The translations under genes were made by a program, and so were the position numbers. The notes beneath the pieces are model-generated. The model was not told the DNA's origin. It saw only the letters and a list, made by a program, of their open reading frames with translations, and made no database searches. DNA of 64,000 nt from Candidatus Omnitrophota bacterium (GTDB lineage: Bacteria; Omnitrophota; Gorgyraeia; 2-01-FULL-45-10): positions 512-64,511 of the forward strand of contig PLNN01000017.1 in assembly GCA_003142795.1 (NCBI GenBank), in the 5' to 3' direction. Every line of letters begins with the position of its first letter. Position 1 is the stretch's first letter. Shown here piece after piece: positions 1-59,857 of this stretch.

Positions 1-22
1 ATATTGATAGTTCCATATGCCT

Positions 23-1057
23 TCAGCGTATCTTATTAAGTTTCTCCAGTTCCATGATCCTATAAGAGCATTTCGTGCACGCGTCTACCTCGTGAGACCG
101 CCCGGCCTTGTGGATGTCCCTATAGTTATCGAAAGCCTTGCTGTGCCACATTTCATATAATGAAACATCCTTAGCGTTGCCCAACGTCATCGCCTGAGCG
201 TCTTTGACGCCATGGATGAGGCACGGAAAGACTGTACCGTCCCACAGTATCATCATCCTTTGCCACAGAAACGGGCATGCCCAATCGCCTTTTAAGTCCA
301 TGCTCGATCCGTCATGCGCGCAATGATAATCCTTTTTAGACTCATCTCTTGCGTCCAGATAAGAGACTTCATCCACTACCGGCTGCCAGAACTTTACATA
401 GTCGCCGAAGGACTCTTTCAGCTCCGGCAGGAGAACTGTCTGTATGCGGATCGCGGGAATAAGGCTCTTTTGTTTGTCGCGCAATTTACGCAGCATCTTT
501 ATCTTCTTCACGACATCTTCATACCGCGCCCCTACCCGGTACCGTTCATATACATCTTTTTTGGTTCCTTCAAACGATATGGAAATACGGTCAAGTTTTG
601 ATGCAATCAGCCTGTTAACTATATCTTCATTTAGAAGAGTGGCATTCGTATTAAAATAGACGTCGACGATCCCGGCCTTTTTTGCATAATCGACCATTTC
701 TACAAGCTGTTTGTGTAATAGAGGCTCTCCCCTGAGGCTAAGTTTTATAGAGAACAAATTACGGGAAACTCCTTCATTAATAATTTTTTTAAACAGCCCG
801 AAGTCCATGAACCCCTTCTCCTCTGGACCCCACTCGTTGAATGTGGAAGCACAAAAAGGACAACGTAAATTGCATAATGAGGTAGCCTCGATATCGAGGT
901 GGATTGGGAATTCTCCGACTGTAAAATTGGCCGGATAGTCATGCCATCTCTTCCTGTATTCTTCAAATCGTTCGTTCCCCGACTTCACATCGAATACCGA
1001 TGTCCGGGTAGCAGTATGAAAATTCGAATTTGCCTGGATATTGATCTTTTTATTCAT
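23..1057 (-). CDS. radical SAM enzyme with C-terminal SPASM/twitch-type cysteine cluster
   Basis: 344-aa ORF. CNLRCPFC (CxxxCxxC) radical SAM motif near the N-terminus. Cys-rich C-terminal region (CPF..CLIHG..CTKCS). Confidence 0.65.
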   Translation of the reverse strand: MNKKINIQANSNFHTATRTSVFDVKSGNERFEEYRKRWHDYPANFTVGEFPIHLDIEATSLCNLRCPFCASTFNEWGPEEKGFMDFGLFKKIINEGVSRNLFSIKLSLRGEPLLHKQLVEMVDYAKKAGIVDVYFNTNATLLNEDIVNRLIASKLDRISISFEGTKKDVYERYRVGARYEDVVKKIKMLRKLRDKQKSLIPAIRIQTVLLPELKESFGDYVKFWQPVVDEVSYLDARDESKKDYHCAHDGSSMDLKGDWACPFLWQRMMILWDGTVFPCLIHGVKDAQAMTLGNAKDVSLYEMWHSKAFDNYRDIHKAGRSHEVDACTKCSYRIMELEKLNKIR

Positions 1058-1066
1058 ATGCGAATA

Positions 1067-1819
1067 TCACTTATCATGCGACGTAGTTGCTTCGTTAAAA
1101 CCGTACCTTTTCAACCAGTACTCCACCATCGGGACCTGCCACTCGTAATCAACATCACAGCCGCCCTCCTGCTTTAGCGGCAGTATTTTCTTTCCCATCC
1201 ACCTTTGCGGCAATAAGCCGTCTTTCAGAGCTTCAAGACATTTGGGCCTTACTATAGAGACGCTTGTGTCAAAGAACCATACGTCACCCTGAGAATCCCT
1301 GTCGCAATTCAATGTCTTCGGGTTTCCGAATGTTTCAAAAGGGACGAATGGATGCAGCAGCCCGTCAGCCCCTACCTTTCTTGCTCTCAGCGGGCTCCAC
1401 ATGTTATAACGCGAAACCGAGATCGCCGAGTCGGCTTCGGGATGCGCCCTTAGCAAAGTTATACCGCGATCGATCAGATCGGAGGTAACTGTCGGGGCGT
1501 TACAAAATAGGAGCACCAGAAATTCGATATCTTTCTTCAGCTCATCTTTTATATATTGATATCCGTGGACATATGCATCTTCGCCAAGCGCCTCTTTTGT
1601 GCATAAATAAGCCGGCCTTTTTATGATTTCGACTCCGCGGGAGCGTGCCAGTTTCATAAGTTCTTCATCATCCGTCGAGAGATATGACCTATCAACTTCG
1701 GCACAGCCAATTGCCGCTTCCATAGGATATGATGCCATCGGTTTACCCAAAACTTTGAATAGATTTTTGCCGGGGAACCCCTCGCTCCCCTTTCTTCCTA
1801 TCAATACCGCAATTACCAT
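1067..1819 (-). CDS. acylneuraminate cytidylyltransferase-family CMP-sugar synthetase (copy 1 of 3)
   Basis: 250 aa. N-terminal GRKGSEGFPGKN resembles the NeuA/PseF/KdsB nucleotidyltransferase P-loop-like motif. Size is typical of CMP-NulO synthetases. Confidence 0.6.
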   Translation of the reverse strand: MVIAVLIGRKGSEGFPGKNLFKVLGKPMASYPMEAAIGCAEVDRSYLSTDDEELMKLARSRGVEIIKRPAYLCTKEALGEDAYVHGYQYIKDELKKDIEFLVLLFCNAPTVTSDLIDRGITLLRAHPEADSAISVSRYNMWSPLRARKVGADGLLHPFVPFETFGNPKTLNCDRDSQGDVWFFDTSVSIVRPKCLEALKDGLLPQRWMGKKILPLKQEGGCDVDYEWQVPMVEYWLKRYGFNEATTSHDK

Positions 1820-1820
1820 T

Positions 1821-2987
1821 TCACGATCCCTTTCTATAATTTTGAAACATCGTCTTATTTTTGCTAATCATCTTTTTCAGAATATTTTTAATGCCGGGAA
1901 ATTTTTCTGCCAAAACTGACCTCGCTCTTTTCATGATCGACATACGATCGTTTGTATAGGCCAATAAATGATCTATGTTCTCGCAGGTCAAAGGCGAATC
2001 GCCTGGTCGCAGAGAAGCCTTTGCTCTAAGCAAACAGTCTCTGGCCTCCTTACATTCCCTGACAGAGAATATCTCATAATTCTTCCTGAAAGATGCGTCC
2101 TTAGCTAGATTATGAGCGAATTGAAAAAACGGTATAGCGTTCAATTCTCTAGCGAATTTTATAAAGTCTGCCAATTCATTCTCATTTTTTTTGTTGATTG
2201 TAAGCGATATGGATAAATTGCTGCCTTTCTTTTTCATAAGTTCCGAAAAGAACCGGATATGTTCCAGCGTTTCCGGCCATCGTGCGGGATATCTCAGTTC
2301 TTCATACAGATCCCTATTGGTCGAGTCTACAGAGATATCTATCAGCCCTAAATTCAATTTTTCAAGAATCGATTTAATGCTATCGCTTAGTATCGTGCCA
2401 TTAGAAATAAGGAACACTTTTATATATGATTTATTCTGACTCAGGTATTCCATAAGCTTAAGATTCGATATTTCGATAAGCGGTTCGCCGCCGTAAAAAA
2501 ATATTATCTGCGCGCGATGCAAAAGCCTCTTTATGTCTTCAAAAAATTTATCAGGGAGCCTAAGCATCGCTTCCCTGTCGCCTCGCTGAAAACAATGATA
2601 ACATTTTAAGTTGCAAGCATAGCTGGTTGAAAAACGCAGCCATCTTGGTCTCGACGCCAGTTCAGCCCTCCCATCCGCGATCTCTTCTTCGTTCTGAACG
2701 GCGTTTTTATAGATTTCGCTGTCTTTAGGTAACTCTTTATACCAGTCGAGTTTCTCGTAATCTTTCCAACCGTGTAGAACAGGACAGCTTTTATGGCATA
2801 TTTCGAATATCCTGCCTTCCAGAAACTTTCGGCGGATGTCTTTATATGCTGCTCCGTTCCATATCTCTTCGATGTTATTCTTGTTTACATTGCCAAGCAC
2901 CATATTATGATTGCAGCAGAATGTAACATCGCCATTCGGGTTATTGACTTCGAAATGAGTAAATGGATAATCACATAAGATCTTCAT
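1821..2987 (-). CDS. radical SAM/SPASM-domain enzyme
   Basis: 388 aa. CNLKCYHC radical SAM motif. Cys-rich auxiliary-cluster region; tightly packed against the neighbouring cytidylyltransferase. Confidence 0.65.
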   Translation of the reverse strand: MKILCDYPFTHFEVNNPNGDVTFCCNHNMVLGNVNKNNIEEIWNGAAYKDIRRKFLEGRIFEICHKSCPVLHGWKDYEKLDWYKELPKDSEIYKNAVQNEEEIADGRAELASRPRWLRFSTSYACNLKCYHCFQRGDREAMLRLPDKFFEDIKRLLHRAQIIFFYGGEPLIEISNLKLMEYLSQNKSYIKVFLISNGTILSDSIKSILEKLNLGLIDISVDSTNRDLYEELRYPARWPETLEHIRFFSELMKKKGSNLSISLTINKKNENELADFIKFARELNAIPFFQFAHNLAKDASFRKNYEIFSVRECKEARDCLLRAKASLRPGDSPLTCENIDHLLAYTNDRMSIMKRARSVLAEKFPGIKNILKKMISKNKTMFQNYRKGS

Positions 2988-3033
2988 AATTATTTTAAAT
3001 TCCTCACCAGCCTATTTTATTCAGGTTCCAGGG

Positions 3034-3747
3034 CTATCTCTTTATTATATTATCAACGTCTTTGATCCTCTGATATACTTTAAGCACATCCTGCTCGTCT
3101 TTTCTGTTTACCACTAACGGCTTTCCATTTGCAGGTCTTAATAATTTGACAAGCATAAAACCATTCCTGCCAAATTCATATTCCCATAACCGCGGATAGA
3201 GGACCCCAACGCCGTCATCGCCCACCATTATCACGTATTTACGCGACACTGCGCACATGTGTTTTATCACATCAAATGAGGGATGCACGAGAGATATGGT
3301 ACTCCCGCCCGAATAGACAAGATCGAACTGCCGGTTATCGGAAACAAGTTTCGGCAGCACCTCCTCGTAACTACCCGCGATCAACTCAACGTTCGAAAGA
3401 TCGAATTTCTTCTTACCATGCTCTATTGCATTCTTGCAGATATCCACCCCGATCAACTTGCTATACCCCAGTTTCTTCATAGCGCTTAGCATAAAGCCGC
3501 AATTGCATCCCAGATCGAGTATCGAATCGCTCTTAGCGATCCTGGCCTCTATCTCGCCGAACAATGTTGGGGTGTGCTTATTGGTGTCGGCTTCATACTT
3601 ATCGTATCCGTGGGGATCTCTGTTTTTCTGATGTTTCCAATAGTTTTTTTGTAAATTTCTTGAAGGATCCAATTTAAAAACAAATCTAGGACAGAAAGTA
3701 AAAAATGGACTCTGTTTATAACTTTTTTCCCTGAATAATCCGAACAC
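3034..3747 (-). CDS. class I SAM-dependent methyltransferase
   Basis: 237 aa. ILDLGCNCGF glycine-rich SAM-binding motif I. Confidence 0.65.
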   Translation of the reverse strand: MFGLFREKSYKQSPFFTFCPRFVFKLDPSRNLQKNYWKHQKNRDPHGYDKYEADTNKHTPTLFGEIEARIAKSDSILDLGCNCGFMLSAMKKLGYSKLIGVDICKNAIEHGKKKFDLSNVELIAGSYEEVLPKLVSDNRQFDLVYSGGSTISLVHPSFDVIKHMCAVSRKYVIMVGDDGVGVLYPRLWEYEFGRNGFMLVKLLRPANGKPLVVNRKDEQDVLKVYQRIKDVDNIIKR

Positions 3748-3767
3748 TTCGGCACCTCACCTTTTAG

Positions 3768-5585
3768 CTAGATCATGATTTTGTTAGTATTATACATCTC
3801 ATGGTATAACCCTTTTATATCCATCAGCGCCTGATGGCTGCCTTCTTCCAAAATCTTCCCGTCTTTAATCACCAGGATCTTGTCGGCATGCATAATAGTG
3901 GAGATCTTATGCGCGATTATAATAACGGTTCTGCCTCTTGCTGAATTATCTATGGCCCTCTGGACGGCTATCTCGGATATGTTGTCCAGGGAATTTGTGG
4001 CTTCATCTAATATCAATATTTCCGGCTTCCTGAAGATGGCCCGCGCTATGGCTATCCGCTGCCTTTGCCCGCCCGATATCTTAATCCCTCTATCGCCGAT
4101 CACTGTATCATATCCCTGCGGAAATTGACTTATAAAATCGTGAGCATTGGCCTCTGTTGCAGCGCTGATCACTTCTTCCATATCAGCATCTTTGGTGCCG
4201 AGCGCAATATTATCCTTGATCGTTCCATGAAAAACAAAACTATCCTGCGTAACTAAGCCTATCTTGCCGAGCCAAGAAGATATGCGAACATTGTTCAGGT
4301 CTATATCATCTATGAATATGCTTCCTTTTGAGGCAGTTAATAGTCGCAGTATAAGATCTACTATGGTGGACTTACCGGATCCGGAGAACCCTACAATAGC
4401 CACGCTGGTACCTTTCTTTATATCAAAGCTAAGATCATTAAACAACGGATCGCGCCCCGGATACGAGAAAGATACGCTTTTAAATGAGATCTTGTCGCTG
4501 AATTTTTTTATCTCTACCATGCCGTCATGCGGCTTCGGGAAATCGGCCATAATACCATACGCTATCTCCACAACAGGAAGAAGCCCGAAAAAAGAGACCA
4601 CCTGGACGCCGAGAAGATTAAAGCATGGGATGATCCTCTGGATAGCGTACCCGACTATGGCGATAATTGGCAAGCTGCTGATAAAACTATTGGCGTAATA
4701 ATACTTCGATACCATCAGAAGGGCAATGAGTGATGACATCACCAAAAATTCGATTATAGCCGGCGGCAATAATAACCATACCGCTTCTTTAATAGTAATG
4801 CGTGAATATCTAACGACCGACGCCCTGAATCTTTCTACCCAAGCGCCGATCGACATAAATACTTTTATCTGCTTAATACCGGTAAATGCTTCGGCGGCAA
4901 TCTCATTTTGCTGTTCAAGCTCAAGGACCTTCTCCGCGCCTAAGCTATATGATACCTTTTTGCCTATAGCCCTTGTTACAAAATAATAAAAAGCAGTCAA
5001 TACGATAATAAATACCGTAACTTTAGGCGATATGAAAAAAAGCATCGCGATTATGACCAGTATCCTTAAAGCATTTACGGCAATTCGCGGTATATAATCA
5101 AAAAAAGTTGATGCTTCCAGAGGAACAGTTATGGTTCGGTGAATAAGCCAACCGTGTTTATGATTAAAGAAAAAGGTATACTCTGAATTTAAAAATCTAT
5201 TGAAAATAGCGTTATGAAAATCTCTCTTAATTTTATATGAAAAGTAACACCCAAGGAACTGACTAAGAAAAGAGAATAAAGCTTTTACTAAAAAACTTAT
5301 TATTAGCAATACGCAGCTCAGGACAAATATATTTTTTATAGCTACGTGATCCGAAATAAACGATATGATCAATGGAATTTTTGAAGGCGATTGAATCGAG
5401 ACCATTCGTTCCAGGGTCTGATTTAAAACTGTGTAAATCAATGCTATGTTGATGCCTTCCATCACCGCGAATACGACAAGTGAAAAGAATACCATCAAAA
5501 CAAGAAACCTGTATGGCCTCAGTAGAAATAGGATCATTTTATAAGTCTGATTTTTCGTAAAATTAAATTTTGCCGCACTACTCAT
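3768..5585 (-). CDS. ABC exporter, fused permease and ATPase half-transporter (MsbA/lipid-A-flippase-like)
   Basis: 605 aa. Six-TM N-terminal half; Walker A GFSGSGKST; ABC signature LSGGQRQR; Walker B ILILDEATNSLD. The true start may be the internal Met at MILFLL. Confidence 0.8.
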   Translation of the reverse strand: MSSAAKFNFTKNQTYKMILFLLRPYRFLVLMVFFSLVVFAVMEGINIALIYTVLNQTLERMVSIQSPSKIPLIISFISDHVAIKNIFVLSCVLLIISFLVKALFSFLSQFLGCYFSYKIKRDFHNAIFNRFLNSEYTFFFNHKHGWLIHRTITVPLEASTFFDYIPRIAVNALRILVIIAMLFFISPKVTVFIIVLTAFYYFVTRAIGKKVSYSLGAEKVLELEQQNEIAAEAFTGIKQIKVFMSIGAWVERFRASVVRYSRITIKEAVWLLLPPAIIEFLVMSSLIALLMVSKYYYANSFISSLPIIAIVGYAIQRIIPCFNLLGVQVVSFFGLLPVVEIAYGIMADFPKPHDGMVEIKKFSDKISFKSVSFSYPGRDPLFNDLSFDIKKGTSVAIVGFSGSGKSTIVDLILRLLTASKGSIFIDDIDLNNVRISSWLGKIGLVTQDSFVFHGTIKDNIALGTKDADMEEVISAATEANAHDFISQFPQGYDTVIGDRGIKISGGQRQRIAIARAIFRKPEILILDEATNSLDNISEIAVQRAIDNSARGRTVIIIAHKISTIMHADKILVIKDGKILEEGSHQALMDIKGLYHEMYNTNKIMI

Positions 5586-5616
5586 GATGCACTTGTATCC
5601 TTTCTATCATTACCCC

Positions 5617-7029
5617 TTATATCGACCCTTCACTATCTTGCATATTTTTCGGCGAACGGTAGTACTGTGTCTTAACTAGATTTTCTTGCTTAATGCCCAT
5701 ATCCAATATCTCATTGCATCGCTTAAGGCCCTCCAAAACGTTGAATTCGAATTCTTTATCGCTCATCTTTGTCATATTCAAGCGCAAATCCTGACGATCG
5801 CCTAACTGCATCAGGTATTCTTCTTCATCTTTAATAAAACCATGTTGGATAGCGTAAGCATACATCGGCGAACCAGGCTGAGGGAGCAGATACCCTGCGG
5901 AAGGATAAATTCTATTTTTGATACAGCAGTCAAAAGTTTCTTTAATCGTCAGAGGAGTCTCTTCCGGATATCCGAATACCAGGCTTGTCCATACTGGCAA
6001 TCCCGCCTTGTGAAATAAAGACGTTTGTCTTGAAAACTGCTCAGGTGTAATGTATTTACACATTGCCTTAAGGATCTCCCGATCGGCTGACTCCAAGGAA
6101 TATGACATACCTAAACATCCAGCTTCTTTCATCTTGTATATAATTTTCATATCTTCATCGCTGGTAAACAAATTTGCACGACAATTAGCCGTCCAGTAAA
6201 AATGTAAATTTTTATCTACTATTTCCTGCGCCATCTCCAAAGCATGCTCCTTAGAATAAAACGTAAGCTCATCCCAGAAGAAAATATAATTCACTCTGTA
6301 TTTTTCGATGGAATGTTTTATTTCATCTACAATGGATTTTGGGGTACGGGGCCGGTATGGGCTCCCGTAAAAATTATGATAGCAGAAGGTGCACTTTGAA
6401 ATGCAGCCCCGTGCCGTATTAACCGGAAGCGCTCGAATTTCTTCTCTGGCTATCGGCAAAGGATCTTTTACTGAAGTTTTAGAATTCTCAATGTATAGCC
6501 CAACATCAAAGATAGAAAAATCTAATAAAGGCATATCTGATATATTTTTAATATTAGGCCGGGCAGGAGTCCTGACAATCGTGCCATTTTTTGGAAAACA
6601 AATGCCTTGTACTGTTTCAAGCGCCCTGCCTTCGTCAATGGCGCGCAGTAAATCCACGATGGTTTCATCACCTTCTCCCATTACTGCGATATTAACCATC
6701 GTACGCGTTAAAAGAGTGTCCACAATCGAAGTTGCTACGGAATTGCCAACAATAATTTTCGCATGGGGTTGATGTTTCTCAATCAATGCCGCTAATGCTT
6801 TAATAATCTTATAGCCTGTGACAATGCAACCCATGCATACAACGTCATATTTTTTCTTTTTGATACTATTCTCCACGTCGCGCTCTGATAAGCGATGCCC
6901 GTCGATATCTAGAAGATCAAAACTGAATCCGGCGTTCTTTATAGCTGTAGCGATATACCCAAGGCCTACGGGAAATAGCTTAACGGGTGACACGGGCCTT
7001 AAGGAAACATTGATGATCAATATGTTCAT
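5617..7029 (-). CDS. B12-binding-domain radical SAM enzyme (class B radical SAM, candidate C-methyltransferase)
   Basis: 470 aa. N-terminal Rossmann-like cobalamin-binding region followed by a CxxxCxxC-type motif (CISKCTFCYH). Confidence 0.65.
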   Translation of the reverse strand: MNILIINVSLRPVSPVKLFPVGLGYIATAIKNAGFSFDLLDIDGHRLSERDVENSIKKKKYDVVCMGCIVTGYKIIKALAALIEKHQPHAKIIVGNSVATSIVDTLLTRTMVNIAVMGEGDETIVDLLRAIDEGRALETVQGICFPKNGTIVRTPARPNIKNISDMPLLDFSIFDVGLYIENSKTSVKDPLPIAREEIRALPVNTARGCISKCTFCYHNFYGSPYRPRTPKSIVDEIKHSIEKYRVNYIFFWDELTFYSKEHALEMAQEIVDKNLHFYWTANCRANLFTSDEDMKIIYKMKEAGCLGMSYSLESADREILKAMCKYITPEQFSRQTSLFHKAGLPVWTSLVFGYPEETPLTIKETFDCCIKNRIYPSAGYLLPQPGSPMYAYAIQHGFIKDEEEYLMQLGDRQDLRLNMTKMSDKEFEFNVLEGLKRCNEILDMGIKQENLVKTQYYRSPKNMQDSEGSI

Positions 7030-7748
7030 GCTGCTCCTCTTAAAATCTTATACTTCAGTTGCGCCATTTTCCAATCTTCCTCGTTATCCAGATCCTGTGC
7101 TTCGGATTCCGTTATCTCAATAGGAACCGTATTGTCCGTGAATATCTTTCTCGTCTTTAAGAAAGCTGTGGAATCTAGCCAATAAAACTGTCCTGCATCA
7201 TGATAGGCGGGCATCAGGTTTTGGGACCTGGAATCAATGTTTTCGGGCCGTATCATCGACAAACGGCCGCCCTCTATCTTCAGCGCCCTCTGGATAGGGT
7301 AACCGAAACGCACAACGGGGATAACAGAGTCAGCATTTCTTTCCTTGAGCAGATCAAAAGCTTCTTTTAGCCTCCGGGACGTTAAAAAAGGCGCCGTAGG
7401 ATATATGCAGCAGCAATATTCAAAATTATCGCCTCTTTTTTTATATTCTAAAAGCACCTCTTCTATCACATCTGCCGTGGTCGCAAAATCGTCTGAGGTA
7501 TGCTTCGATCTCAAAAAAGGGACTTTTGCGCCAAATGAAATGGAAATATCGCGGATCTCTCTATCATCTGTAGAAACCACGACTTCATCAAAACAATGTG
7601 ATGTCAGCGCGGCATCTATTGAATATTTTAATATGGGCTGCCCCATAAAATCTCTGATATTTTTTCGCGGTATTCGTTTGCTTCCGCCGCGAGCGGTAAT
7701 AATAGCTACGCACTTATCCATTTTCTGCCTCCACGCCGATCTCGTCAT
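7026..7748 (-). CDS. pseF: pseudaminic acid cytidylyltransferase-like (CMP-NulO synthetase, copy 2)
   Basis: 240 aa. VAIITARGGSKRIPRKN motif typical of PseF/NeuA. Sits within the pseB-C-G-I neighbourhood. Confidence 0.65.
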   Translation of the reverse strand: MTRSAWRQKMDKCVAIITARGGSKRIPRKNIRDFMGQPILKYSIDAALTSHCFDEVVVSTDDREIRDISISFGAKVPFLRSKHTSDDFATTADVIEEVLLEYKKRGDNFEYCCCIYPTAPFLTSRRLKEAFDLLKERNADSVIPVVRFGYPIQRALKIEGGRLSMIRPENIDSRSQNLMPAYHDAGQFYWLDSTAFLKTRKIFTDNTVPIEITESEAQDLDNEEDWKMAQLKYKILRGAA

Positions 7749-7790: not shown

Positions 7791-8744
7791 TTAAACAGTT
7801 TCAAGATCGAAGAATGTCTCCCCAATGGTTCTAACCGCGACACCGCTTGTGCATGTTGGTACATATTCAATAACCCGCCCCTCCTTCAAATCTATCCACC
7901 ATTTCACATCTTTAAACCCAAAACAATGACGTACATACACGGTGCTTGAAAATCTTGGATTGATCTCAAACGGCACATAGCCATTCTTGCCTTTTCTCAA
8001 CTGAACATTGATTGATCCTTCAAGCGATGATGCCTTAGCAATTTTTTGCGCAAGCGCTGTAAGTTCTCCATCCTGAACAAGCTGGGCATATTTGGTAAGG
8101 CTCCCATATCCCAAATACCTTTTAAAACCAATGGAATAAGTCTCGCGCCCCGTGGAGAATACTCCCATAGTATATTCCTCATCAGGCCCACCTACAATCT
8201 CCTGGACAAAGGCATCTTTCATTCTTTTTTTATAAAAAGAAAGTTCTTCATTATTTTCTATGCGCAGGACACCTTTTGCGCCCCATCCTCTTCTCTGTTT
8301 TAATAGCACGGGAAATGGCATTTCACTCTGAAACTGATCAATAAGAAAAGTTTTAGGGTGTGGGAGATCATTGTTTTTCAGAAAAAGAAAGGTCTCATAT
8401 TTGTCAAAAAACATTTTGATAAGGGCAGACTTGTTAATAAGAACTGTGGTTTTTTTGCCGAAAAATTCTCTGCGTTCATTATAAAATTCAATTTCGATCT
8501 CCGTAGTAGGAATAATACAGGAAATCGATTCCTTCTCCATTATATTTTTAACAAACTCAAAATAATTTTTGCTATCACTCGCATGCGGGGCTTGGAAAAA
8601 TAAATCAACCGCGTTCCTGCCGGCCGCAAAATTATCTACATCACAGCCGAAAAGCGTGACCTCGCATTCTATTCCTTTCAGGCATTTAAGTATGCTTTGT
8701 CCTATATCTCCGCCGACACCAGTTATTAAAATAGATTTCCGCAC
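7791..8744 (-). CDS. ATP-grasp domain protein (carboxylate-amine ligase)
   Basis: 317 aa. Short-form carbamoyl-phosphate-synthase-like ATP-grasp architecture. Located between PseF-like and the phosphoesterase. Confidence 0.55.
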   Translation of the reverse strand: MRKSILITGVGGDIGQSILKCLKGIECEVTLFGCDVDNFAAGRNAVDLFFQAPHASDSKNYFEFVKNIMEKESISCIIPTTEIEIEFYNERREFFGKKTTVLINKSALIKMFFDKYETFLFLKNNDLPHPKTFLIDQFQSEMPFPVLLKQRRGWGAKGVLRIENNEELSFYKKRMKDAFVQEIVGGPDEEYTMGVFSTGRETYSIGFKRYLGYGSLTKYAQLVQDGELTALAQKIAKASSLEGSINVQLRKGKNGYVPFEINPRFSSTVYVRHCFGFKDVKWWIDLKEGRVIEYVPTCTSGVAVRTIGETFFDLETV

Positions 8745-8746
8745 AA

Positions 8747-9439
8747 CTATCGCTCTTTTCTCTGTAAGATCTTGTAAAGATATGAATTTTTTTCTCTGCG
8801 CTTCATCACATCTCGCACCATCAGCATATTGTCATACTGAACTCTTTTGAACTCTACAAGATCCGAATCAATATCAATTATCGCATACGACGCACTATTA
8901 TAGTCCCGCGGCTGGCCGATCGATCCGGGGTTTATAATTCTTAATCTGCCTATCTTCCTGTCCATTGGATAATGAGTATGCCCCAATATCACAAACCGAT
9001 ATGGCAATCGGCTGAACCTATCAAGGCAGTCTTGAGGATATACGTATTCCTCTAAATAGTTCCAGGGACTCCCATGAAACATCCCTATGTTAAAATCGTC
9101 TAAAACATTCACTTTAGGCAACGCCCTTAAAAAGGATATGTTTTCTTCAGTTATATATTTCTTCAAAAGGCGCGAAGAATTTCCATAAGCTTCACTATAT
9201 TCCTTTTCTAATTTTGGATCATCGAGCATTTTGAGAAATATATCATCATGATTACCCGCTACACAATAAAGATTCTTCTCGTTTTTGAGAATATCGATGA
9301 TCTCATTCTGATAATAATAATATCCGCAAATATCGCCGACAAAACAATACAGATCACACGTTTCGGCGATTAGAGATCTCCACGCTTTCTCGAAAGCGTA
9401 AATATTCCCATGTACATCCCCGAATATACCTATTTTCAT
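8747..9439 (-). CDS. calcineurin-like metallophosphoesterase
   Basis: 230 aa. GDVHGN, GDxxD and GNHD metal-binding motifs. Confidence 0.7.
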   Translation of the reverse strand: MKIGIFGDVHGNIYAFEKAWRSLIAETCDLYCFVGDICGYYYYQNEIIDILKNEKNLYCVAGNHDDIFLKMLDDPKLEKEYSEAYGNSSRLLKKYITEENISFLRALPKVNVLDDFNIGMFHGSPWNYLEEYVYPQDCLDRFSRLPYRFVILGHTHYPMDRKIGRLRIINPGSIGQPRDYNSASYAIIDIDSDLVEFKRVQYDNMLMVRDVMKRREKNSYLYKILQRKER

Positions 9440-9445
9440 ATCTAT

Positions 9446-10300
9446 TCACCGTGGCTGTAGATACAGAACGGTACTCCTGCCTATGCCGCATTGATACAAA
9501 ATAGAATAAAATTTTGAAAGCAAATCCGGTTCATAGCAACGCAGAATGCGCTCCATATTAACAACCTTCTTAAAACTCGCCCTCCCCAGAGACTTGCGTT
9601 TGAGATAATCATCGCCCATCAGAAGAAACATTTCCATAGGAAAAGAACTTTCGCCGCGCAAGATGGTATATCCCGCCTTTTTTACCAAATTGCGGATTCC
9701 TTCTTTATCGAAATAATTAACGTGGTCGGGTAGCGCGATCCAATATGGCGTTAAATTATGTTCCTTTATATAGGCTAATTGGAATGGGTTGAATTCATTC
9801 GGCACCTCAACCATAACTATTCCGTTCTTTGCAATATTACTTTTCAAGCGTTGTAAAAATCCAAGTGCATCCGGAATGTGCTCTAAGATATAGGCGACAT
9901 TTACGACATCCCATCTCTTTTTAGAAAACTTTTGAAAAAATTCTTTTATAGAGATTTGATAGATTGAGATGCCCTTGGACGTCGCGATAGCAGCGGCTTT
10001 TTTGTTTAACTCGGTTCCCGTGCATTTCCACCCTTCTTTCTTGAAGTATTCAAGCTGCGCACCTTCCCAACACCCTATATCGAGTATGCTCCCACACGAT
10101 TTCCATTTTTTTATGCTTCTGACTTTTTCTCTCCATAGGTTGCTCGGCGTGCTTCTTCGATAAACATATTCATAAAATTTTTCCAATTCCTCCTCGCTAT
10201 ACATAGGAGATATGTGAGCATACCCGCATTTCTTACAAAAAATAACTTTACGATCTCTCTTCGTCAGAAGGAGCTCTCCCCGGCATTCTCCTTTCATCAT
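9446..10300 (-). CDS. class I SAM methyltransferase with N-terminal zinc ribbon
   Basis: 284 aa. CKKCGYAH Cys pair at the N-terminus; LDIGCWEG SAM motif. Confidence 0.6.
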   Translation of the reverse strand: MMKGECRGELLLTKRDRKVIFCKKCGYAHISPMYSEEELEKFYEYVYRRSTPSNLWREKVRSIKKWKSCGSILDIGCWEGAQLEYFKKEGWKCTGTELNKKAAAIATSKGISIYQISIKEFFQKFSKKRWDVVNVAYILEHIPDALGFLQRLKSNIAKNGIVMVEVPNEFNPFQLAYIKEHNLTPYWIALPDHVNYFDKEGIRNLVKKAGYTILRGESSFPMEMFLLMGDDYLKRKSLGRASFKKVVNMERILRCYEPDLLSKFYSILYQCGIGRSTVLYLQPR

Positions 10301-11352
10301 ATGTCACCTCGGGTTATTATAGCGCCATTTCTTCTATTTCTTTTCAGCGTTTTACCAATGACGCTATCAATCTCGACCGGATGTATGAAATCACAATGAA
10401 TCCCGATATTGCGCAAGGCTATCAGATCATCGGCATTTACAATCTGCCCCTTAGAAAGATCTTTCTTCGCGTAGAGACAGCGCTTATAAAAATAGAGCTC
10501 TTTTTCACAATCAAAAATCCTTCTCTTGCGAAATATATGTAATGCGCTTTCTGCCTGACGTATGGCCGTCACCATGCAACGAAACTCATCCGGCTCGAGG
10601 GCATAGATATGATCCGGCCCCGGAAGTTTTTTGCTTAATGTGATATGTTTTTCGATGACTCTTGCGCCTAGCGCCACTGATACTGTAGGGGCGATGATCG
10701 GATCAGCGGTATGGTCGGAATATCCAACGTTTATATTATACCGTGCACGAAAATATGGTATAACGCTCAGAAACGTTTCTTTGATCGGCGCAGGATATTT
10801 TGCGATACAATGCATAAGAACCGTTTTTTCTTCATAACCAAGGAGTATCTTGGTTATCATCATATCAATTTCTTCTTCAGTGCTTCCGCCTGTCGAAATA
10901 AAGAGTGGTTTTCCTGTTTTTTTCACTTCTTCTATAAGCTCCGAAAACATAGACTCGTAAGAAGCTATCTTAAACACATTGACATAAGGATTAATTACCT
11001 TTACGGCCTTCACGTCAAAAGGGGTTGCCATAAATTCTATGCCGCTTTTTTTCGCATATCTATAAAGTTCATCGATCCATTCGTAAGGAACCTCGTTTCT
11101 CTCGATTATGCTATAGAGACTATCGTTGATTCCCATATTTTTTAAATATCGTACCTTTATATGCTTATCCGGATACATAGTCTTCGCGCGGAATATCTGG
11201 AATTTTACCGCATCCGCCCCGGCATCGCGGGCAATGTCAATTAATTGCTTCGCCTGTCGCAAGGAGCCGTTATGATTTGAGCCCACCTCGGCTATTATAA
11301 AACACGGGGACTCATCACTTATTATCTTCCTACCAACGCGTATCTTATGCAT
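10297..11352 (-). CDS. pseI: NeuB-family nonulosonic acid synthase (pseudaminic acid synthase-like) with C-terminal SAF domain
   Basis: 351 aa. N-terminal FIIAEVGSNHNGSL..AKQLIDIA..GADAVKFQ is the NeuB/PseI/LegI hallmark. Context with pseB, pseC and pseG supports the call. Confidence 0.75.
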   Translation of the reverse strand: MHKIRVGRKIISDESPCFIIAEVGSNHNGSLRQAKQLIDIARDAGADAVKFQIFRAKTMYPDKHIKVRYLKNMGINDSLYSIIERNEVPYEWIDELYRYAKKSGIEFMATPFDVKAVKVINPYVNVFKIASYESMFSELIEEVKKTGKPLFISTGGSTEEEIDMMITKILLGYEEKTVLMHCIAKYPAPIKETFLSVIPYFRARYNINVGYSDHTADPIIAPTVSVALGARVIEKHITLSKKLPGPDHIYALEPDEFRCMVTAIRQAESALHIFRKRRIFDCEKELYFYKRCLYAKKDLSKGQIVNADDLIALRNIGIHCDFIHPVEIDSVIGKTLKRNRRNGAIITRGDI

Positions 11353-11384
11353 ACCGCATGGTCCTATGCTCGTTTATTCTCATT

Positions 11385-12461
11385 TTAAAATCTCCTTCTA
11401 TATATATATGCTAATATTTTTTTTACAGCCCTATGAACGCCGCGGCCATCGACTATTTTTTTTCCTCTCCGGCACCTCTCCGATCGCAGCTTCTTATCAA
11501 AGATGACAAGATCTAATTTCGCCTTCAACTTTTTCATGATTTTGTCGTTACTGCCTCTATCGCCTTTATAGCACCCCACATGCTCGATAACGCCGGCGCG
11601 CGAGAGAGCCCTGGAATGCCGCATTTGATTCTCTGCAACGGTTATGACTATAGAAGGAACTCCCATTCTGGCAAGCTCGTACAATGTCTGGCCACCTGCC
11701 GAGATCGTAATATCGGACTTGATCATTAGTTCTTTCATGGTATCGGCGTTCGGATCATAGATAAACCTTGTATTCTCGTCTCCACAGTTTTTTAATTTAT
11801 TTGCGTACTTAAAACCCCTGCTTATAACGACATCTTTGTTCAGGCCGGGATACTTATGAGCAAGTAATTTCAAAACTTTCGGCGTCACATTCATTGGATC
11901 GCAACCACCAAAAGTCACAAGCACGGTCTTGACATGTTTACGTATACGCTTCCGGGGAGCATCTAAAAACTCTTTTCTTAAGGGCGCATATCTGCTGCCA
12001 AGCAAATAAAAAACTCCATCTCTTTCTGGATACTCAATCTTTTCTGCGTAAGCAGCGCTATTTATCACGACGCCGGGAGGGTAATTTATACGCATATTAT
12101 CATCTATATAGACCGGCAGCTTCGCTATAATAGATATTTTCTTATAAAAATTAAGGTCAGCGAGATAAGAATCCACAAGGATAATGTCCATTTCTCGCGC
12201 GGTTTTCAATACTTCCGTCCTTGCCTTTAACCAGTTCAGTATCTTATACCGCTTTGATCTTAACATTCCTTTTACGCTGTCATCACCGCACACAATGATA
12301 TCTGGCTTTATACCCTTTTCTTCAAAGGCATGATAAAAAGCAAGGCATCTGGTGATATGCCCATATCCAATACTTTTCCCGCCTTCTGTTAATATCAATG
12401 CTTTCATTTTATCTCTTATTTTTATCGATCTACACAATGTCGGAAGAACCGGCTTCACCAT
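11385..12461 (-). CDS. pseG: PseG-like UDP-sugar hydrolase (GT-B fold, UDP-2,4-diacetamido-trideoxy-altropyranose hydrolase family)
   Basis: The ORF as tracked runs to 12578 and overlaps pseC by 124 nt. Internal Met candidates (MVKPV or MKALILTEGG) give a non-overlapping start. The KALILTEGGKSIGYGHITRCL N-terminus is PseG-like. Confidence 0.5.
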   Translation of the reverse strand: MVKPVLPTLCRSIKIRDKMKALILTEGGKSIGYGHITRCLAFYHAFEEKGIKPDIIVCGDDSVKGMLRSKRYKILNWLKARTEVLKTAREMDIILVDSYLADLNFYKKISIIAKLPVYIDDNMRINYPPGVVINSAAYAEKIEYPERDGVFYLLGSRYAPLRKEFLDAPRKRIRKHVKTVLVTFGGCDPMNVTPKVLKLLAHKYPGLNKDVVISRGFKYANKLKNCGDENTRFIYDPNADTMKELMIKSDITISAGGQTLYELARMGVPSIVITVAENQMRHSRALSRAGVIEHVGCYKGDRGSNDKIMKKLKAKLDLVIFDKKLRSERCRRGKKIVDGRGVHRAVKKILAYIYRRRF

Positions 12462-13615
12462 CCGGCCCCGAAGAAACCGGCTATTTTTTTCACAACATAA
12501 TCTATTTCCCTCTCTCGTATCGCGGGATACATAGGAATGCTGATCTCGCCTCCATAAAATTCTTCCGCTTTCCGGCAAAGCCCTTTAGCATATCCGAGCT
12601 GTTTATAGTATGGCTGGAGATAGACCGGGATGTAATGCACTTGAGCGCCTATACCAGAAGCCCGCAAAATATTAAAAAGAGGGGTCCTGTCCTTCGGATC
12701 CCTCGTTCTTATGCAATAAATATGATATGATGAACTAACATACGACCGCTCGACGGGCAATAGTATATCTTCGATGCCGCATAATTTTTTATTATACGTC
12801 TCGGCGATCTGGCGTCTTCTTATAACAAAAGTATTTAACTTTTTCAGCTGACTTAAGCCCAGCGCGCTCTGGATATCTGTTATACGATAATTAAAGCCTA
12901 AGCACTGCATTTCGTAGTACCAAGAGCCGGTTAAGCGCTGATCCTGGCACACGAAACGCAATCTATCCCTGCTTATCCCGTGGCTCCGCAGCATTAAAAG
13001 CTTTTCGTAAAGATCTTTTTTGTTCGTCAACACAGCCCCGCCCTCGCCCGTAGTGATACTTTTAACGGGATGAAAACTGAATATCGTCATATCGGAATAT
13101 TTGCAGGCGCCTATCTTTGAACCCTTATATTCTGCGCCCACGGCATGTGCGGCATCTTCAATAACGACAAGACCGTTTCGATCAGCTATGGCGCTTATCT
13201 CTTCCATATCGCACGGATGACCGGCAAAATGGACCGGAATGAGCGCTTTTGTCTTCTTGTGTATCTTGGTTTTTATCTCTTTAGGGTCTATGTTGATCGT
13301 GTCATGCTGCACATCGGCAAAAACCGGCCTTCCGCCGCAATATAAAACGCTATTTGCCGAAGCAAGAAACGTTATCGGAGAAGTGATAACTTCATCGCGC
13401 GCTTTTATACCGGCAGCCAAACATGCAATATGCAAAGCGGCCGTTCCGCTCGATACGGCCACGGCATATTTCGCGCCGGTATACCTGCAAAGGGCGTTTT
13501 CGAATACGTCCACATTCGGCCCCTGCGTGATATAATCCGATCTTAAAACTCTGACAACAGCATCAATGTCGTCTTGATCGATATATTGATGGCTATACGG
13601 GATAAATCTATTCAA
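12455..13615 (-). CDS. pseC: UDP-4-keto-6-deoxy-AltNAc aminotransferase (DegT/DnrJ/EryC1 family)
   Basis: 386 aa. FSFHPVKSITTGEGG PLP-lysine motif. QYIDQDDIDAVVRVLRSDYITQG N-terminus is typical of PseC. Confidence 0.8.
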   Translation of the reverse strand: MNRFIPYSHQYIDQDDIDAVVRVLRSDYITQGPNVDVFENALCRYTGAKYAVAVSSGTAALHIACLAAGIKARDEVITSPITFLASANSVLYCGGRPVFADVQHDTINIDPKEIKTKIHKKTKALIPVHFAGHPCDMEEISAIADRNGLVVIEDAAHAVGAEYKGSKIGACKYSDMTIFSFHPVKSITTGEGGAVLTNKKDLYEKLLMLRSHGISRDRLRFVCQDQRLTGSWYYEMQCLGFNYRITDIQSALGLSQLKKLNTFVIRRRQIAETYNKKLCGIEDILLPVERSYVSSSYHIYCIRTRDPKDRTPLFNILRASGIGAQVHYIPVYLQPYYKQLGYAKGLCRKAEEFYGGEISIPMYPAIREREIDYVVKKIAGFFGAGW

Positions 13616-14606
13616 TTCTTGTCCTTTCTATCATCCTTTTAATCTCAGGAACGCTCAACCATTGCTCATTCTTATCGCTACTGTATACGAATCCCTCGGG
13701 CGGGATCTTATATTTGTAATATTTACCATGGACATGCTTGCCCTCAAAGAATTCCGCAAGAATAACATACGCGCCTTTGAACATTCTTGTTTTGCGCGCC
13801 TCATCCTCCGATATTAGGGTTTCGTGCATCTTCTCTCCGGGGCGTATCCCTATTATTTTGAATCTGCACCGCGGCTCAATCGCCCTGGCCAGATCCGTTA
13901 TTTTCATCGACGGTATCTTCGGGATAAAGACCTCTCCGCCCACGGATTCCTTCAGGGCCTTCATGACTAAATTCACCCCCTGCTCCAGAGTTATCCAGAA
14001 ACGCGTCATGCGTTCATCGGTTATAGAAAACTCCAGATTCTTCTGCCTTTTACATTCGAGGAATAGGGGTATGACGCTTCCTCTTGAGCCGACAACGTTC
14101 CCGTATCTTACAGCTGAAAATTTGACACGACCGCCCGCATAAGCGTTTGCGGCTATGAATATCTTTTCGGCAGCTAATTTTGTGGCACCATACAGGTTGA
14201 TGGGACTGACGGCTTTATCGCTCGATAACGCAACTACTTTCTTAACGCCTCTATCTATGGCGGCATCTACTATATTATCCGCTCCAAGGATATTGGTTTT
14301 CACAGCTTCAACTGGATTATATTCGAGGGCTGGTACCTGTTTCAATGCCGCCGCATGGACCACATAATCTACGCTTTCAAATGCCCTGTAGAGACGACTC
14401 TTATCCCGTATGTCTCCCAGGAAATATCGTATCGGATATTTAGATACCGGGAATATCTTCGCCATCTCGTGTTGCTTGAACTCATCGCGGCTTAATATGA
14501 TAACCTTTTTGGGGTGACATCTTTTGAAAACCATCTCTGTAAATTTTTTCCCGAATGAACCCGTTCCGCCAGTTATAAGAATTACTTTATTATTAAGCAT
14601 ATCCAC
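13608..14606 (-). CDS. pseB: UDP-GlcNAc 4,6-dehydratase/5-epimerase (inverting)
   Basis: 332 aa. VILITGGTGSFGKKF Rossmann motif. PseB/FlaA1-like throughout. Confidence 0.8.
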   Translation of the reverse strand: MDMLNNKVILITGGTGSFGKKFTEMVFKRCHPKKVIILSRDEFKQHEMAKIFPVSKYPIRYFLGDIRDKSRLYRAFESVDYVVHAAALKQVPALEYNPVEAVKTNILGADNIVDAAIDRGVKKVVALSSDKAVSPINLYGATKLAAEKIFIAANAYAGGRVKFSAVRYGNVVGSRGSVIPLFLECKRQKNLEFSITDERMTRFWITLEQGVNLVMKALKESVGGEVFIPKIPSMKITDLARAIEPRCRFKIIGIRPGEKMHETLISEDEARKTRMFKGAYVILAEFFEGKHVHGKYYKYKIPPEGFVYSSDKNEQWLSVPEIKRMIERTRIE

Positions 14607-19298: not shown

Positions 19299-19729
19299 CT
19301 TCCCTCAGTCACTTCAACGAGTTCTATAAAAACTCCGTCCGGGTCCATGCAAAACGCTATCTTAGCGTATCCATCCGGAGATAACTTCGGCGATGAAACG
19401 AAATCAACGCCTTCCCCCAGAAGCCTCTTATACTCTTTCTCTATATCATCCACGGTAAAAGCTATGTGCGATAGCCCAATGTCATGCAGCTTTTTTTCGA
19501 CTCCCCGATTGGGATGAGAATGAAAATATAAAAGCTCAATAAGATTACCGTTATCCGTGGCCATCTTTACCGTTGTAAGCCTGGAATCCCGTAGACCACA
19601 CACCTTGTCGATATAGCCACTCGATTCGTCTGAACGCTTGGCTATCTTTAAGCCGAGAAGTTCTCCGTAAAAATATACAGCTTTTTCCAGATCCGATACC
19701 ACTATCCCGGCGTGACGCATGGCTTTCAT
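19295..19729 (-). CDS. VOC-family (glyoxalase/bleomycin-resistance/epimerase-like) protein
   Basis: 144 aa. MRHAGIVVSDLEKAVYFY..LGL N-terminus is typical of a VOC beta-alpha-beta-beta-beta module. Confidence 0.6.
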   Translation of the reverse strand: MKAMRHAGIVVSDLEKAVYFYGELLGLKIAKRSDESSGYIDKVCGLRDSRLTTVKMATDNGNLIELLYFHSHPNRGVEKKLHDIGLSHIAFTVDDIEKEYKRLLGEGVDFVSSPKLSPDGYAKIAFCMDPDGVFIELVEVTEGR

Positions 19730-21890: not shown

Positions 21891-21905
21891 GTCTTCTCCT
21901 TATTA

Positions 21906-24125: not shown

Positions 24126-24222
24126 AAATAATCCTTTTCTATCGTTTAAAACGTTCTAAACGATAATACTCCTCATTAATTAAACTGTCAATCAAAAAAT
24201 GCTCATAAATTATCCGAACTTT

Positions 24223-41847: not shown

Positions 41848-41853
41848 TACGAA

Positions 41854-59678: not shown

Positions 59679-59717
59679 CTTTAGCCTCTTTCCGTAAAAT
59701 TTTTCATTACTCGCATG

Positions 59718-59857
59718 TTGGCAGATACCGGCAGGGTGCCCTTGAGGCGTTAAATTTTGTGAGCGAGCGTCGCAATTGAATGATACAAATCTTGTACATA
59801 CCAATTGCAGCGAGCCACAAAATTAGCCGAAAGGGCCCCTGCCGGTCAATCTGCCCT
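59718..59857. repeat. about 140-bp imperfect palindrome (long hairpin-forming inverted repeat)
   Basis: GGCAGATACCGGCAGGGTGCCC (59718-) pairs with GGGCCCCTGCCGGTCAATCTGCC (-59857). Inner arms (GTGAGCGAGCGTCGCAATTG vs CAATTGCAGCGAGCCACAA) are also complementary. Centre is near 59790. Confidence 0.5.

Follow-up and report, generated by a model that had tools for sequence, protein, structure and literature searches.

The 64,000-nucleotide stretch analyzed here over its full length (hereafter, the window) comes from contig PLNN01000017.1 of a Candidatus Omnitrophota bacterium (positions 512 to 64,511) and carries at its left end six genes, between positions 23 and 7029, that encode three radical S-adenosylmethionine (rSAM) enzymes, a cytidylyltransferase (CT), a methyltransferase and an ABC exporter. 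We consider it about an even chance that the module to which these genes belong converts a nonulosonic or another 2-ulosonic acid to a cytidine monophosphate (CMP) ester and remodels this sugar for incorporation into a surface glycan that is exported. The components are of known kinds; their combination is uncharacterized and very widespread. Capsules, O-antigens and flagella carry nonulosonic acids, which influence recognition by the immune system. To our knowledge, their biosynthesis relies only on NAD-, pyridoxal phosphate- and acetyl-CoA-dependent enzymes, and a literature search covering pseudaminic, legionaminic and sialic acids, flagellin glycosylation and O-antigen identified no report linking rSAM enzymes with these pathways, in agreement with the first-pass annotation of this DNA. 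The genes at the left end are as follows.

1–16, minus strand: first 16 nt of a gene for an AP_endonuc_2 TIM barrel protein
23–1057, minus strand: twitch-type rSAM enzyme, 344 aa (Pfam: Radical_SAM, 69.9 bits, and SPASM, 53.2 bits)
1067–1819, minus strand: CT of a distinct CTP_transf_3 subfamily, 250 aa (PF02348, 46 bits; cutoff 22.6)
1821–2987, minus strand: rSAM enzyme with a predicted N-terminal (permuted) twitch domain (N-twitch rSAM), 388 aa (SPASM, residues 5–69; Radical_SAM, residues 121–279)
3034–3747, minus strand: class I SAM-dependent methyltransferase, 237 aa (Methyltransf_25/31/11 matches)
3768–5585, minus strand: fused ABC half-transporter of the type I exporter kind, 605 aa (ABC_membrane and ABC_tran)
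5617–7029, minus strand: rSAM enzyme with a B12-binding domain (B12-rSAM), 470 aa (B12-binding, 55 bits; Radical_SAM, 67.5 bits)

The coordinates of the open reading frames (ORFs) and the Pfam and NCBIfam matches agree with the original description of six co-directional genes with these domains. The intergenic gaps are 9, 1, 46, 20 and 31 nt, i.e., 1–46 nt against the 0–46 nt given originally, and the last ORF shares 4 nt with pseF (7026–7748). This overlap, together with scores of PseF, PseC and PseB above the respective cutoffs, confirms the contiguity with the pse genes, and the run of minus-strand genes extends from ~51.8 kb down to the left edge of the window. The top NCBIfam match of the methyltransferase is the pseudaminic acid biosynthesis-associated methylase (42 bits, under the cutoff of 112).

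Past the left edge, genes were read from the source scaffold (L001; ENA ERZ28656667, WOOD18-1 scaffold_60, 148 kb), where the module extends for at least 10 kb in the order AP_endonuc_2 TIM barrel, HisC-like aminotransferase, methyltransferase, second B12-rSAM, 656-aa TIGR04326 protein, methyltransferase, 2-hydroxyacid dehydrogenase, extended short-chain dehydrogenase/reductase (SDR), cyclase-family hydrolase and haloacid dehalogenase (HAD) phosphatase. The six genes first noticed are real, but they are the upstream half of a module of ~17 kb or more, and a second cassette of related composition (19726–23584) had been missed.

A cytidylyltransferase subfamily and its conserved neighborhood

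The CT encoded by 1067–1819 scores 62.5 bits against the PseF model TIGR03584 (cutoff 205.7), and the true PseF is encoded by 7026–7748, so this protein is not PseF and stands outside the pse pathway. Its earlier placement in the NeuA family holds for the PF02348 fold and the catalytic residues, but the protein represents a separate conserved subfamily. The catalytic positions of NeuA/PseF are kept (R9, G11, S12, K18, N19, the STD motif and D222-x-D224), and the top PDB match is 6IFD, the CMP-pseudaminic acid synthetase of A. caviae. In all likelihood, the protein is active as a CMP-ulosonate synthetase and has a fixed preference for its substrate. A database search identifies 5422 relatives at E ≤ 1e-5, the best 120 of which are 63–75% identical and include sequences from Planctomycetota, Nitrospirota, Syntrophorhabdaceae, anammox bacteria and one Thorarchaeota contig. 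On plasmids, tblastn searches with the CT and the N-twitch rSAM detected distant relatives of at most 33% identity and no close orthologs.

For the analysis of genomic context, 54 genome loci were gathered with homologs of the N-twitch rSAM and 80 metagenome loci with the CT, in addition to several contigs found by exact protein look-up; the neighbors of the CT were clustered into families, and the number of loci containing each partner was counted. The most frequent partners are extended SDRs (46 CT loci), 2-hydroxyacid dehydrogenase (39), B12-rSAM (37), a 330-aa twitch rSAM (37), HisC-like aminotransferase (30) and methyltransferases (29 or more), followed by Gfo/Idh/MocA oxidoreductase (22), HAD (22), adh_short SDR (20), cyclase (15), a 613-aa protein (13), TIM barrel (12), ABC exporter (9) and NeuB (9). 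The CT loci L061–L145 are unusually rich in class I methyltransferases: four or more of the recurrent families are methyltransferases, as are ~20 of the 140 residual neighbor families. The exact triad N-twitch rSAM/CT/twitch rSAM, on which the first-pass annotation had focused, is found in the same order only in close relatives (metagenome loci L003/L080, with 80/74/41% identity), but in 28 of the 77 CT-bearing loci the twitch rSAM gene is the immediate neighbor of the CT gene. The gene arrangement is not due to chance.

A precedent for oxidation of a CMP-activated nonulosonic acid is the ElaABC module of Acinetobacter baumannii KL49 and Vibrio vulnificus, which 8-epimerizes CMP-Leg5,7Ac2 (PMC13656337). 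In this system, ElaB, a CT, makes CMP-Leg5,7Ac2, the Gfo/Idh/MocA enzyme ElaA is proposed to oxidize the C8 hydroxyl of the CMP-sugar, and ElaC, an SDR, to form the 8-epimer by reducing the ketone, as supported by genetics, crystal structures and docking (PMC13656337). Around the CT analyzed here, the twitch rSAM and Gfo/Idh/MocA are nearly mutually exclusive: within 3 kb of the CT, 12 loci encode only the twitch rSAM, nine only Gfo/Idh/MocA, one both and three neither (Fisher p = 0.001, a value that is no more than indicative, given the phylogenetic dependence among the loci). In operons that are otherwise collinear, one enzyme takes the slot of the other ('2HADH Epi rSAM Epi CT' vs '2HADH Epi MT Gfo Epi CT'). 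In a partner test on the 23 loci with at least 5 kb on each side of the CT, a HisC-like aminotransferase or an adh_short SDR, never both, is present in 19 of the 20 loci with a single oxidant, and the sole locus with two oxidants carries both the aminotransferase and the SDR.

The source of the acid is less apparent from these contexts. A NeuB-type synthase is encoded within 9 kb of the CT in two of the 17 well-flanked loci, so the linkage to nonulosonic acid genes anticipated earlier is found in only a few of the related loci. The 140 residual neighbor families are dominated by methyltransferases, and no alternative ulosonate synthase of the KdsA, HpcH or NanA type reaches three of them. Since NeuB is rarely near and no other synthase recurs, the module appears to tailor, activate and transfer an acid that it obtains from another source. 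In the window, this acid would most simply be pseudaminic acid (Pse) from the adjacent pse genes, plausibly as in L099, the locus with the closest architecture (PseG, PseI, one ORF, ABC, CT, twitch rSAM, aminotransferase).

It is a tentative but realistic alternative that the CT subfamily activates another 2-ulosonic acid (octulosonic, hexulosonic, Kdn-type, or NeuB-independent) and that the pse operon supplies another sugar of the same polysaccharide; in a NeuB-independent route, the conserved genes for 2-hydroxyacid dehydrogenase, HAD phosphatase and TIM barrel could take part. The scarcity of NeuB near the CT fits this possibility, as does the presence in the window of a dedicated PseF and of a third CT paired with a second NeuB. 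Furthermore, the identity of 63–75% among the best CT relatives across phyla suggests one fixed substrate while the nearby nonulosonic acid types vary, and the Rhodospirillales clusters combine the CT with two Gfo enzymes, HAD, 2-hydroxyacid dehydrogenase and TIM barrel but no NeuB. Conversely, no candidate synthase for such an acid recurs, 10-kb flanks are short against loci of more than 60 kb, and L099 and L084 place Pse/NeuB genes directly upstream of the ABC, CT and rSAM genes. A distant variant on a plasmid of the cultured Azospirillum thermophilum (NZ_CP029359.1, 109250–123939; L146) also adjoins a NeuB-family gene, LegB and LegC; it consists of genes for CT, radical SAM, methyltransferase, SDR, TIM barrel and two more SDRs. 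The same locus encodes two phytanoyl-CoA dioxygenase family proteins, a TylF-type O-methyltransferase and a HAD protein; these dioxygenases could serve as aerobic equivalents of the radical reactions.

Radical SAM enzymes of the module

All three rSAM proteins contain the CX3CX2C motif (CNLRCPFC at residue 62, CNLKCYHC at residue 125 and CISKCTFC at residue 209) and match PF04055 with 67–70 bits (cutoff 29.5). In addition to C62/C66/C69, the 344-aa enzyme has only four invariant auxiliary cysteines across 28 homologs (C261, C279, C327, C330), with the spacing C-x17-C-x47-C-x2-C. The auxiliary cysteines of the 388-aa enzyme are C5, C24, C64 and C68 only, which precede the core C125/C129/C132 and are invariant in 30 homologs. 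The seven-cysteine SPASM motif (CX9-15GX4C...CX2CX5CX3C...C) is absent from both proteins despite the Pfam SPASM match. Because each has four conserved cysteines and not seven, both auxiliary domains are predicted to be of the single-cluster twitch type and not SPASM and, judging by the cysteine pattern, the twitch domain of the 388-aa protein is permuted to the N terminus. The 'two SPASM enzymes' of the first-pass annotation are indeed rSAM enzymes with Pfam SPASM matches that flank the CT, but the domains are BtrN-like twitch domains, one of them N-terminal.

A PDB sequence search started with the 344-aa enzyme identifies BtrN as the top match (2.6e-9, in the twitch domain). With the AlphaFold (AF2) model (predicted local distance difference test score of 83), BtrN is also the top fold match (E = 2.5e-10, TM-score 0.67 on the target), followed by DesII, BlsE and viperin, which act on sugars or nucleotides. 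Because this enzyme replaces the Gfo enzyme in Ela-like loci and has BtrN as its best match, we propose, by analogy, that it acts as a dehydrogenase on a hydroxyl of the CMP-ulosonic acid, independently of O2 and NAD. The possibility that the twitch rSAMs are instead radical epimerases, dehydratases/deoxygenases or C-C bond-forming enzymes acting on the sugar, like DesII, AprD4, viperin and BlsE, seems improbable. Three of these enzymes are among the top fold matches, and the N-twitch rSAM co-occurs with two Gfo/Idh/MocA enzymes in Rhodospirillales, so that it does not replace them; for the 344-aa enzyme, however, the exclusivity with Gfo, the obligatory aminotransferase or SDR partner and the top match to BtrN are best compatible with formation of a ketone.

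The proposed dehydrogenase activity followed by amination is supported by the second cassette of the window, in which NeuB, a twitch rSAM, a CT and an aminotransferase are encoded together:

22700–23584, minus strand: NeuB-family synthase lacking the SAF domain
21906–22703, minus strand: small twitch rSAM, 265 aa (twitch cysteines C189, C207, C253, C256)
21135–21890, minus strand: third CT of the window
19726–21135, minus strand: class III aminotransferase

At two junctions of this cassette the stop and start codons overlap, and the third gap is 15 nt. The 265-aa protein is homologous to the 344-aa rSAM over its whole length (hhalign E = 5.7e-13, 241 columns), and the cassette is conserved in L008 with 47–56% identity. 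Here, an rSAM enzyme and a NeuB-type synthase are linked more directly than in 23–7029. Between this cassette and glycosyltransferase genes, the minus strand encodes a MarR-like protein of 164 aa and a protein with a transglutaminase core (23631–24987).

The N-twitch rSAM (1821–2987) is harder to place. It scores 123.6 bits on NF033640, under the cutoff of 170; a PDB sequence search yielded no match, and a fold search retrieved generic rSAM cores only. The co-occurrence with two Gfo enzymes in Rhodospirillales indicates that its role differs from Gfo-type oxidation; a second radical oxidation, an epimerization or a deoxygenation is possible. The N-twitch loci of Rhodospirillales also contain genes for CT, TIM barrel, SDR, HAD, 2-hydroxyacid dehydrogenase, an MBOAT/AlgX-type O-acetylation pair and an ABC exporter. 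In L010–L045 (Rhodospirillales metagenome-assembled genomes, Phaeospirillum tilakii and Caenispirillum bisanense), a conserved cluster of ~17 genes surrounds the N-twitch rSAM gene: a 570-aa protein, B12-rSAM, ABC exporter, TIM barrel, SDR, KpsC-like 542-aa protein and the N-twitch rSAM itself, then two Gfo/Idh/MocA proteins, CTP_transf_3, GDSL/AlgX-like, MBOAT, HAD, 2-hydroxyacid dehydrogenase and heparinase II/III-like proteins. Several of the carriers belong to magnetotactic lineages (Ca. Magnetominusculus, Magnetovibrionaceae).

The B12-rSAM (5617–7029) consists of an N-terminal B12-binding domain (PF02310, 55 bits, cutoff 32.1, residues 17–127) and the rSAM core. The top PDB matches are AprD4 (1.9e-11) and CysS (8.8e-11), all NCBIfam equivalogs score far below cutoff, and orthologs are present in L094 (56%) and L063 (41%). 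By default, this protein is proposed to be a C-methylase; deoxygenation is also possible. For the module as such, the hopanoid, BchE, ladderane-lipid and tungsten-cofactor maturase readings that the top NCBIfam matches might suggest were rejected, every score being far below cutoff and the context being polysaccharide synthesis.

It appears highly improbable that CMP is the handle of a small molecule other than a sugar (for example, phosphonate-like or a hydroxy acid), which B12-rSAMs would methylate, as in the Fom1/Fom3 system, before its attachment to the polysaccharide. CT and B12-rSAM genes are adjacent (pseF and 5617–7029 in the window; Azospirillum), there are weak NCBIfam matches to P-methyltransferases of the PhpK type (109 bits) and the Sden_1168 type (104 bits), and HisC-like aminotransferase, 2-hydroxyacid dehydrogenase and HAD are enzymes of small phospho-acids. 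However, neither the window nor L001 encodes phosphoenolpyruvate mutase or phosphonopyruvate decarboxylase, the CT is of the NeuA/KdsB type (PF02348) and not of the LicC/MobA type, and the KpsC-like protein with its HP motif points to a CMP-ulosonate donor.

The chance that the rSAM proteins mature a ribosomal peptide exported by the ABC transporter, i.e., a ribosomally synthesized and post-translationally modified peptide (RiPP), is very remote. The Pfam SPASM matches, low-scoring NCBIfam matches to many RiPP maturases and the presence of CteB, SuiB and SkfB among the fold matches speak for such a function. Against these stand gaps of 1–46 nt that leave no room for a precursor gene, an ABC protein without the C39 peptidase domain, only four conserved auxiliary cysteines, scores for all RiPP equivalogs far below cutoff, and conserved neighbors that are sugar enzymes in ~90 loci. 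Nor is there a Pfam domain before the rSAM core: residues 13–43 of the AF2 model form one short strand and two helices, with no evident domain resembling a RiPP recognition element. Next to negligible is the possibility that these proteins are anaerobic sulfatase-maturating enzymes (anSME), notwithstanding anSME structures among the fold matches, given that the match to the anSME model is weak (38 bits against a cutoff of 349 for TIGR03942) and that a sulfatase is found neither among the ORFs of the window with 150 aa or more, nor in the L001 Pfam list (10 kb past the window), nor among recurrent neighbor families. The original dismissal of peptide and sulfatase maturation is therefore upheld.

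Transfer, export and the proposed pathway

The 656-aa protein encoded past the left edge scores 237 bits with TIGR04326, marginally under the cutoff of 250, and is homologous (unk656) to the 613-aa protein of CT loci (f12_613) and to a 542-aa protein (F1_542) that is encoded immediately before the N-twitch rSAM in 23 Rhodospirillales loci. As a single sequence, the 656-aa protein gave nothing useful in a PDB search. The sole PDB match of a profile built from 18 members of the 656/613/542-aa family is the CMP-Kdo-dependent beta-Kdo transferase KpsC (E = 3.5e-4 over 78 profile positions). The aligned region contains the invariant K/R-x-H-P ('KvHP') and S..G.EAL.aG.P motifs, which correspond to VKVHP and GFEALLAGKPV of KpsC; in the 656-aa protein of the source scaffold the HP motif reads R-P-H-P, and the remainder of the protein has no match. 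This motif-level similarity suggests that the module may encode its own CMP-ulosonate transferase.

The ABC protein (3768–5585) has its best NCBIfam scores with HepA (378 vs a cutoff of 725 bits) and MsbA (370 vs 602), both under cutoff, as is the score with PglK (240 vs 1000), and Pfam detects only the generic architecture of a fused exporter. Homologs are encoded directly upstream of the CT in the unrelated loci L099, L084, L073 and L141 and are also present in 17 Rhodospirillales N-twitch loci. The idea of a dedicated MsbA-like exporter gains from this recurrence beside the CT, but the cargo needs revision: by analogy with ABC-transporter-dependent capsules, the protein probably exports or flips a lipid-linked glycan or polymer, not a CMP-sugar.

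Taken together, the observations are compatible with the following pathway. The conserved CT (1067–1819) would, judging from its motifs, make the CMP-sugar. The twitch rSAM (23–1057), acting in the place of ElaA, would then abstract a hydrogen atom and convert a hydroxyl to a ketone without NAD or O2. The HisC-like aminotransferase encoded past the left edge would aminate this ketone, the counterpart in sister loci being re-reduction by an SDR, and the TIM barrel protein with the AP-endonuclease fold may epimerize a center beside the keto group. Class I methyltransferases would add N- or O-methyl groups and the B12-rSAMs C-methyl groups. Finally, the TIGR04326/KpsC-like protein, by its conserved motifs, is predicted to move the finished sugar from CMP to the glycan, and the MsbA/PglK-like ABC protein would export or flip the lipid-linked product.

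Several points weigh against this reading. Every chemical step is one that we infer, for all family members. The similarity to BtrN is distant (~20% identity, TM-score 0.5–0.67), and other twitch/SPASM enzymes, peptide-modifying ones included, score nearly as well; AprD4, the nearest structural relative of the B12-domain enzyme, is a dehydratase and not a methylase; and the match to KpsC is marginal. The model does not yet accommodate the genes for 2-hydroxyacid dehydrogenase, HAD and cyclase, although few partners are as well conserved. The exclusivity statistics treat related loci as independent, and many of the loci are short. Because the window encodes three CTs for two NeuB-type synthases and NeuB is so seldom found near the CT, the substrate need not be Pse or any nonulosonic acid. 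The original proposal of radical tailoring of a CMP-activated ulosonic acid thus draws support from the catalytic residues of the CT, the KpsC-like HP motif and the ElaABC precedent, but is less secure with respect to the identity of the sugar, with a linkage to NeuB that is occasional.

A broader and more speculative hypothesis, which on the whole we regard as unlikely, holds that anaerobes from many bacterial phyla, together with one or more archaeal lineages (represented by the contig labeled Thorarchaeota), share an undescribed pathway in which a dedicated CMP-ulosonate synthetase, BtrN-like dehydrogenases and cobalamin-dependent rSAM methylases yield a new class of aminated, C-methylated ulosonic acids, possibly without a NeuB-type synthase, followed by KpsC-like transfer or polymerization and ABC export. 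If the proposed functions are correct, rSAM chemistry would widen the nonulosonic acid family with new amino and C-methyl variants and provide an oxygen-independent counterpart of the oxidation by ElaA. Three large orphan families would gain a function, namely the CT subfamily (>5000 members), the twitch rSAM (~900) and the N-twitch family NF033640, and the TIGR04326 'surface carbohydrate biosynthesis proteins' would acquire a testable role as CMP-sugar transferases.

The surrounding locus and comparison with known systems

Upstream of the module, the minus-strand run continues with the genes for nonulosonic acid supply:

7026–7748, minus strand: PseF, bona fide CMP-pseudaminic acid synthetase (TIGR03584, 303.7 bits; cutoff 205.7)
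7791–10300, minus strand: ATP-grasp ligase, metallophosphoesterase and methyltransferase, between pseI and pseF (Pfam/NCBIfam)
10297–14606, minus strand: PseI/NeuB-type synthase, PseG, PseC and PseB (NCBIfam)

PseC (508 bits) and PseB (474 bits) score above the NCBIfam cutoffs, PseG is marginally under (150 bits vs 153.6), and the PseI/NeuB-type synthase (262–280 bits) is under the equivalog cutoffs. The genes at 7791–10300 are likely involved in the chemistry of Pse substituents. The PseG ORF (11385–12578, TTG start) overlaps PseC (12455–13615) by 124 nt; its true start is probably further downstream because the match to the PseG model starts at residue 58. Directly upstream of pseB are two ORFs without Pfam matches (596 and 404 aa; 14620–17608, minus strand), the first of which has a weak match to a PFTS-motif polysaccharide protein; a PDB sequence search with the 596-aa protein as a single sequence gave nothing useful. 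This pair may encode nonulosonic acid transferases. A promoter and terminator scan gave a signal no better than that in shuffled sequence, and Rfam and tRNA scans were empty, so that no cobalamin riboswitch is predicted.

The whole region from ~51.8 kb leftward is one surface-polysaccharide locus, which includes Wzx, glycosyltransferases, PMT_2 proteins, rml-like genes and UDP-glucose dehydrogenases. A divergent sugar operon (35343–43179, plus strand) encodes an NTP_transferase, two SDR dehydratase/epimerases, a three-domain thiamine pyrophosphate enzyme (593 aa, possibly YerE-like), a DegT-family protein (442 aa), a family 2 glycosyltransferase (GT2) and PMT_2, and resembles a pathway to a 3,6-dideoxy or branched-chain sugar. 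The polysaccharide locus is bordered upstream by a 731-aa ORF without a Pfam match (51991–54186, minus strand), and beyond it are two GGDEF diguanylate cyclases (54232–57044) and a corrinoid-binding protein (B12-binding and B12-binding_2; 59037–59804, minus strand) that adjoins accD and fits a cobalamin-using organism.

Among characterized enzymes, the 344-aa rSAM matches BtrN (PDB 4M7T) best, both in sequence and in fold. BtrN, the 2-deoxy-scyllo-inosamine dehydrogenase of the butirosin pathway, is an rSAM alcohol dehydrogenase paired with an aminotransferase, an anaerobic alternative to the NAD-dependent dehydrogenases of related aminoglycoside pathways. Both enzymes have one auxiliary cluster with the C-x17/18-C...C-x2-C spacing, and BtrN, as is proposed for the 344-aa enzyme, works with an aminotransferase in the conversion of C-OH to C-NH2. 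The differences are the identity of only ~20%, an extra conserved stretch of 50 residues at the N terminus of the 344-aa protein, and the substrate, an aminocyclitol in the case of BtrN and presumably a CMP-sugar here.

The group 2 capsule loci (KpsC/KpsS, KpsU, KpsMT) likewise combine a CMP-ulosonate synthetase, an HP-motif transferase and an ABC exporter, and the VKVHP and GFEALLAGKPV motifs of KpsC align with the conserved ~600-aa protein of the module. This similarity is at the level of motifs only (E = 3.5e-4), the exporter is a fused half-transporter of the MsbA/PglK type, unlike KpsM/KpsT, and no homolog of KpsS, KpsD or KpsE was seen. Oxidation of a hydroxyl of an ulosonic acid followed by transamination also occurs in the KdnA/KdnB system, which forms Kdo8N in Shewanella; KdnB, however, is a metal-dependent alcohol oxidoreductase that acts before CMP activation, and no rSAM enzyme is involved.

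In the fosfomycin pathway, Fom3 acts on a cytidylylated substrate. As with the Fom1 CT domain and Fom3, and sugar-methylating class B rSAM enzymes like GenK, a B12-rSAM is encoded here beside a CT, which suggests methylation of a cytidylylated substrate. In contrast to that system, the CT belongs to a different fold family, phosphonate genes are absent, the closest structure is the dehydratase AprD4, and the use of cobalamin is a prediction. In PMC8158854, Fom3 is described as the B12-rSAM methyltransferase of fosfomycin biosynthesis.

ElaABC is also a close parallel. The structures of ElaA and ElaB were solved by molecular replacement with 3EZY and 6IFD (PMC13656337), which are also the nearest PDB relatives of the Gfo family neighboring the CT (top match 3EZY) and of the CT itself. 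Both systems combine a dedicated CT with a ketone-forming oxidant and a ketone-resolving enzyme, and sister loci of the module contain exactly CT, Gfo/Idh/MocA and SDR. The window and L001 encode neither Gfo/Idh/MocA nor a classical SDR, so this particular module is not a member of the ElaABC family; it has a twitch rSAM in place of Gfo/Idh/MocA and a HisC-like aminotransferase in place of the SDR. In addition, its CT belongs to a separate subfamily, and the module further encodes B12-rSAMs, numerous methyltransferases, an ABC exporter and a KpsC-like protein. By analogy, the module in the window appears to follow the same logic as ElaABC, oxidation followed by reduction or amination.

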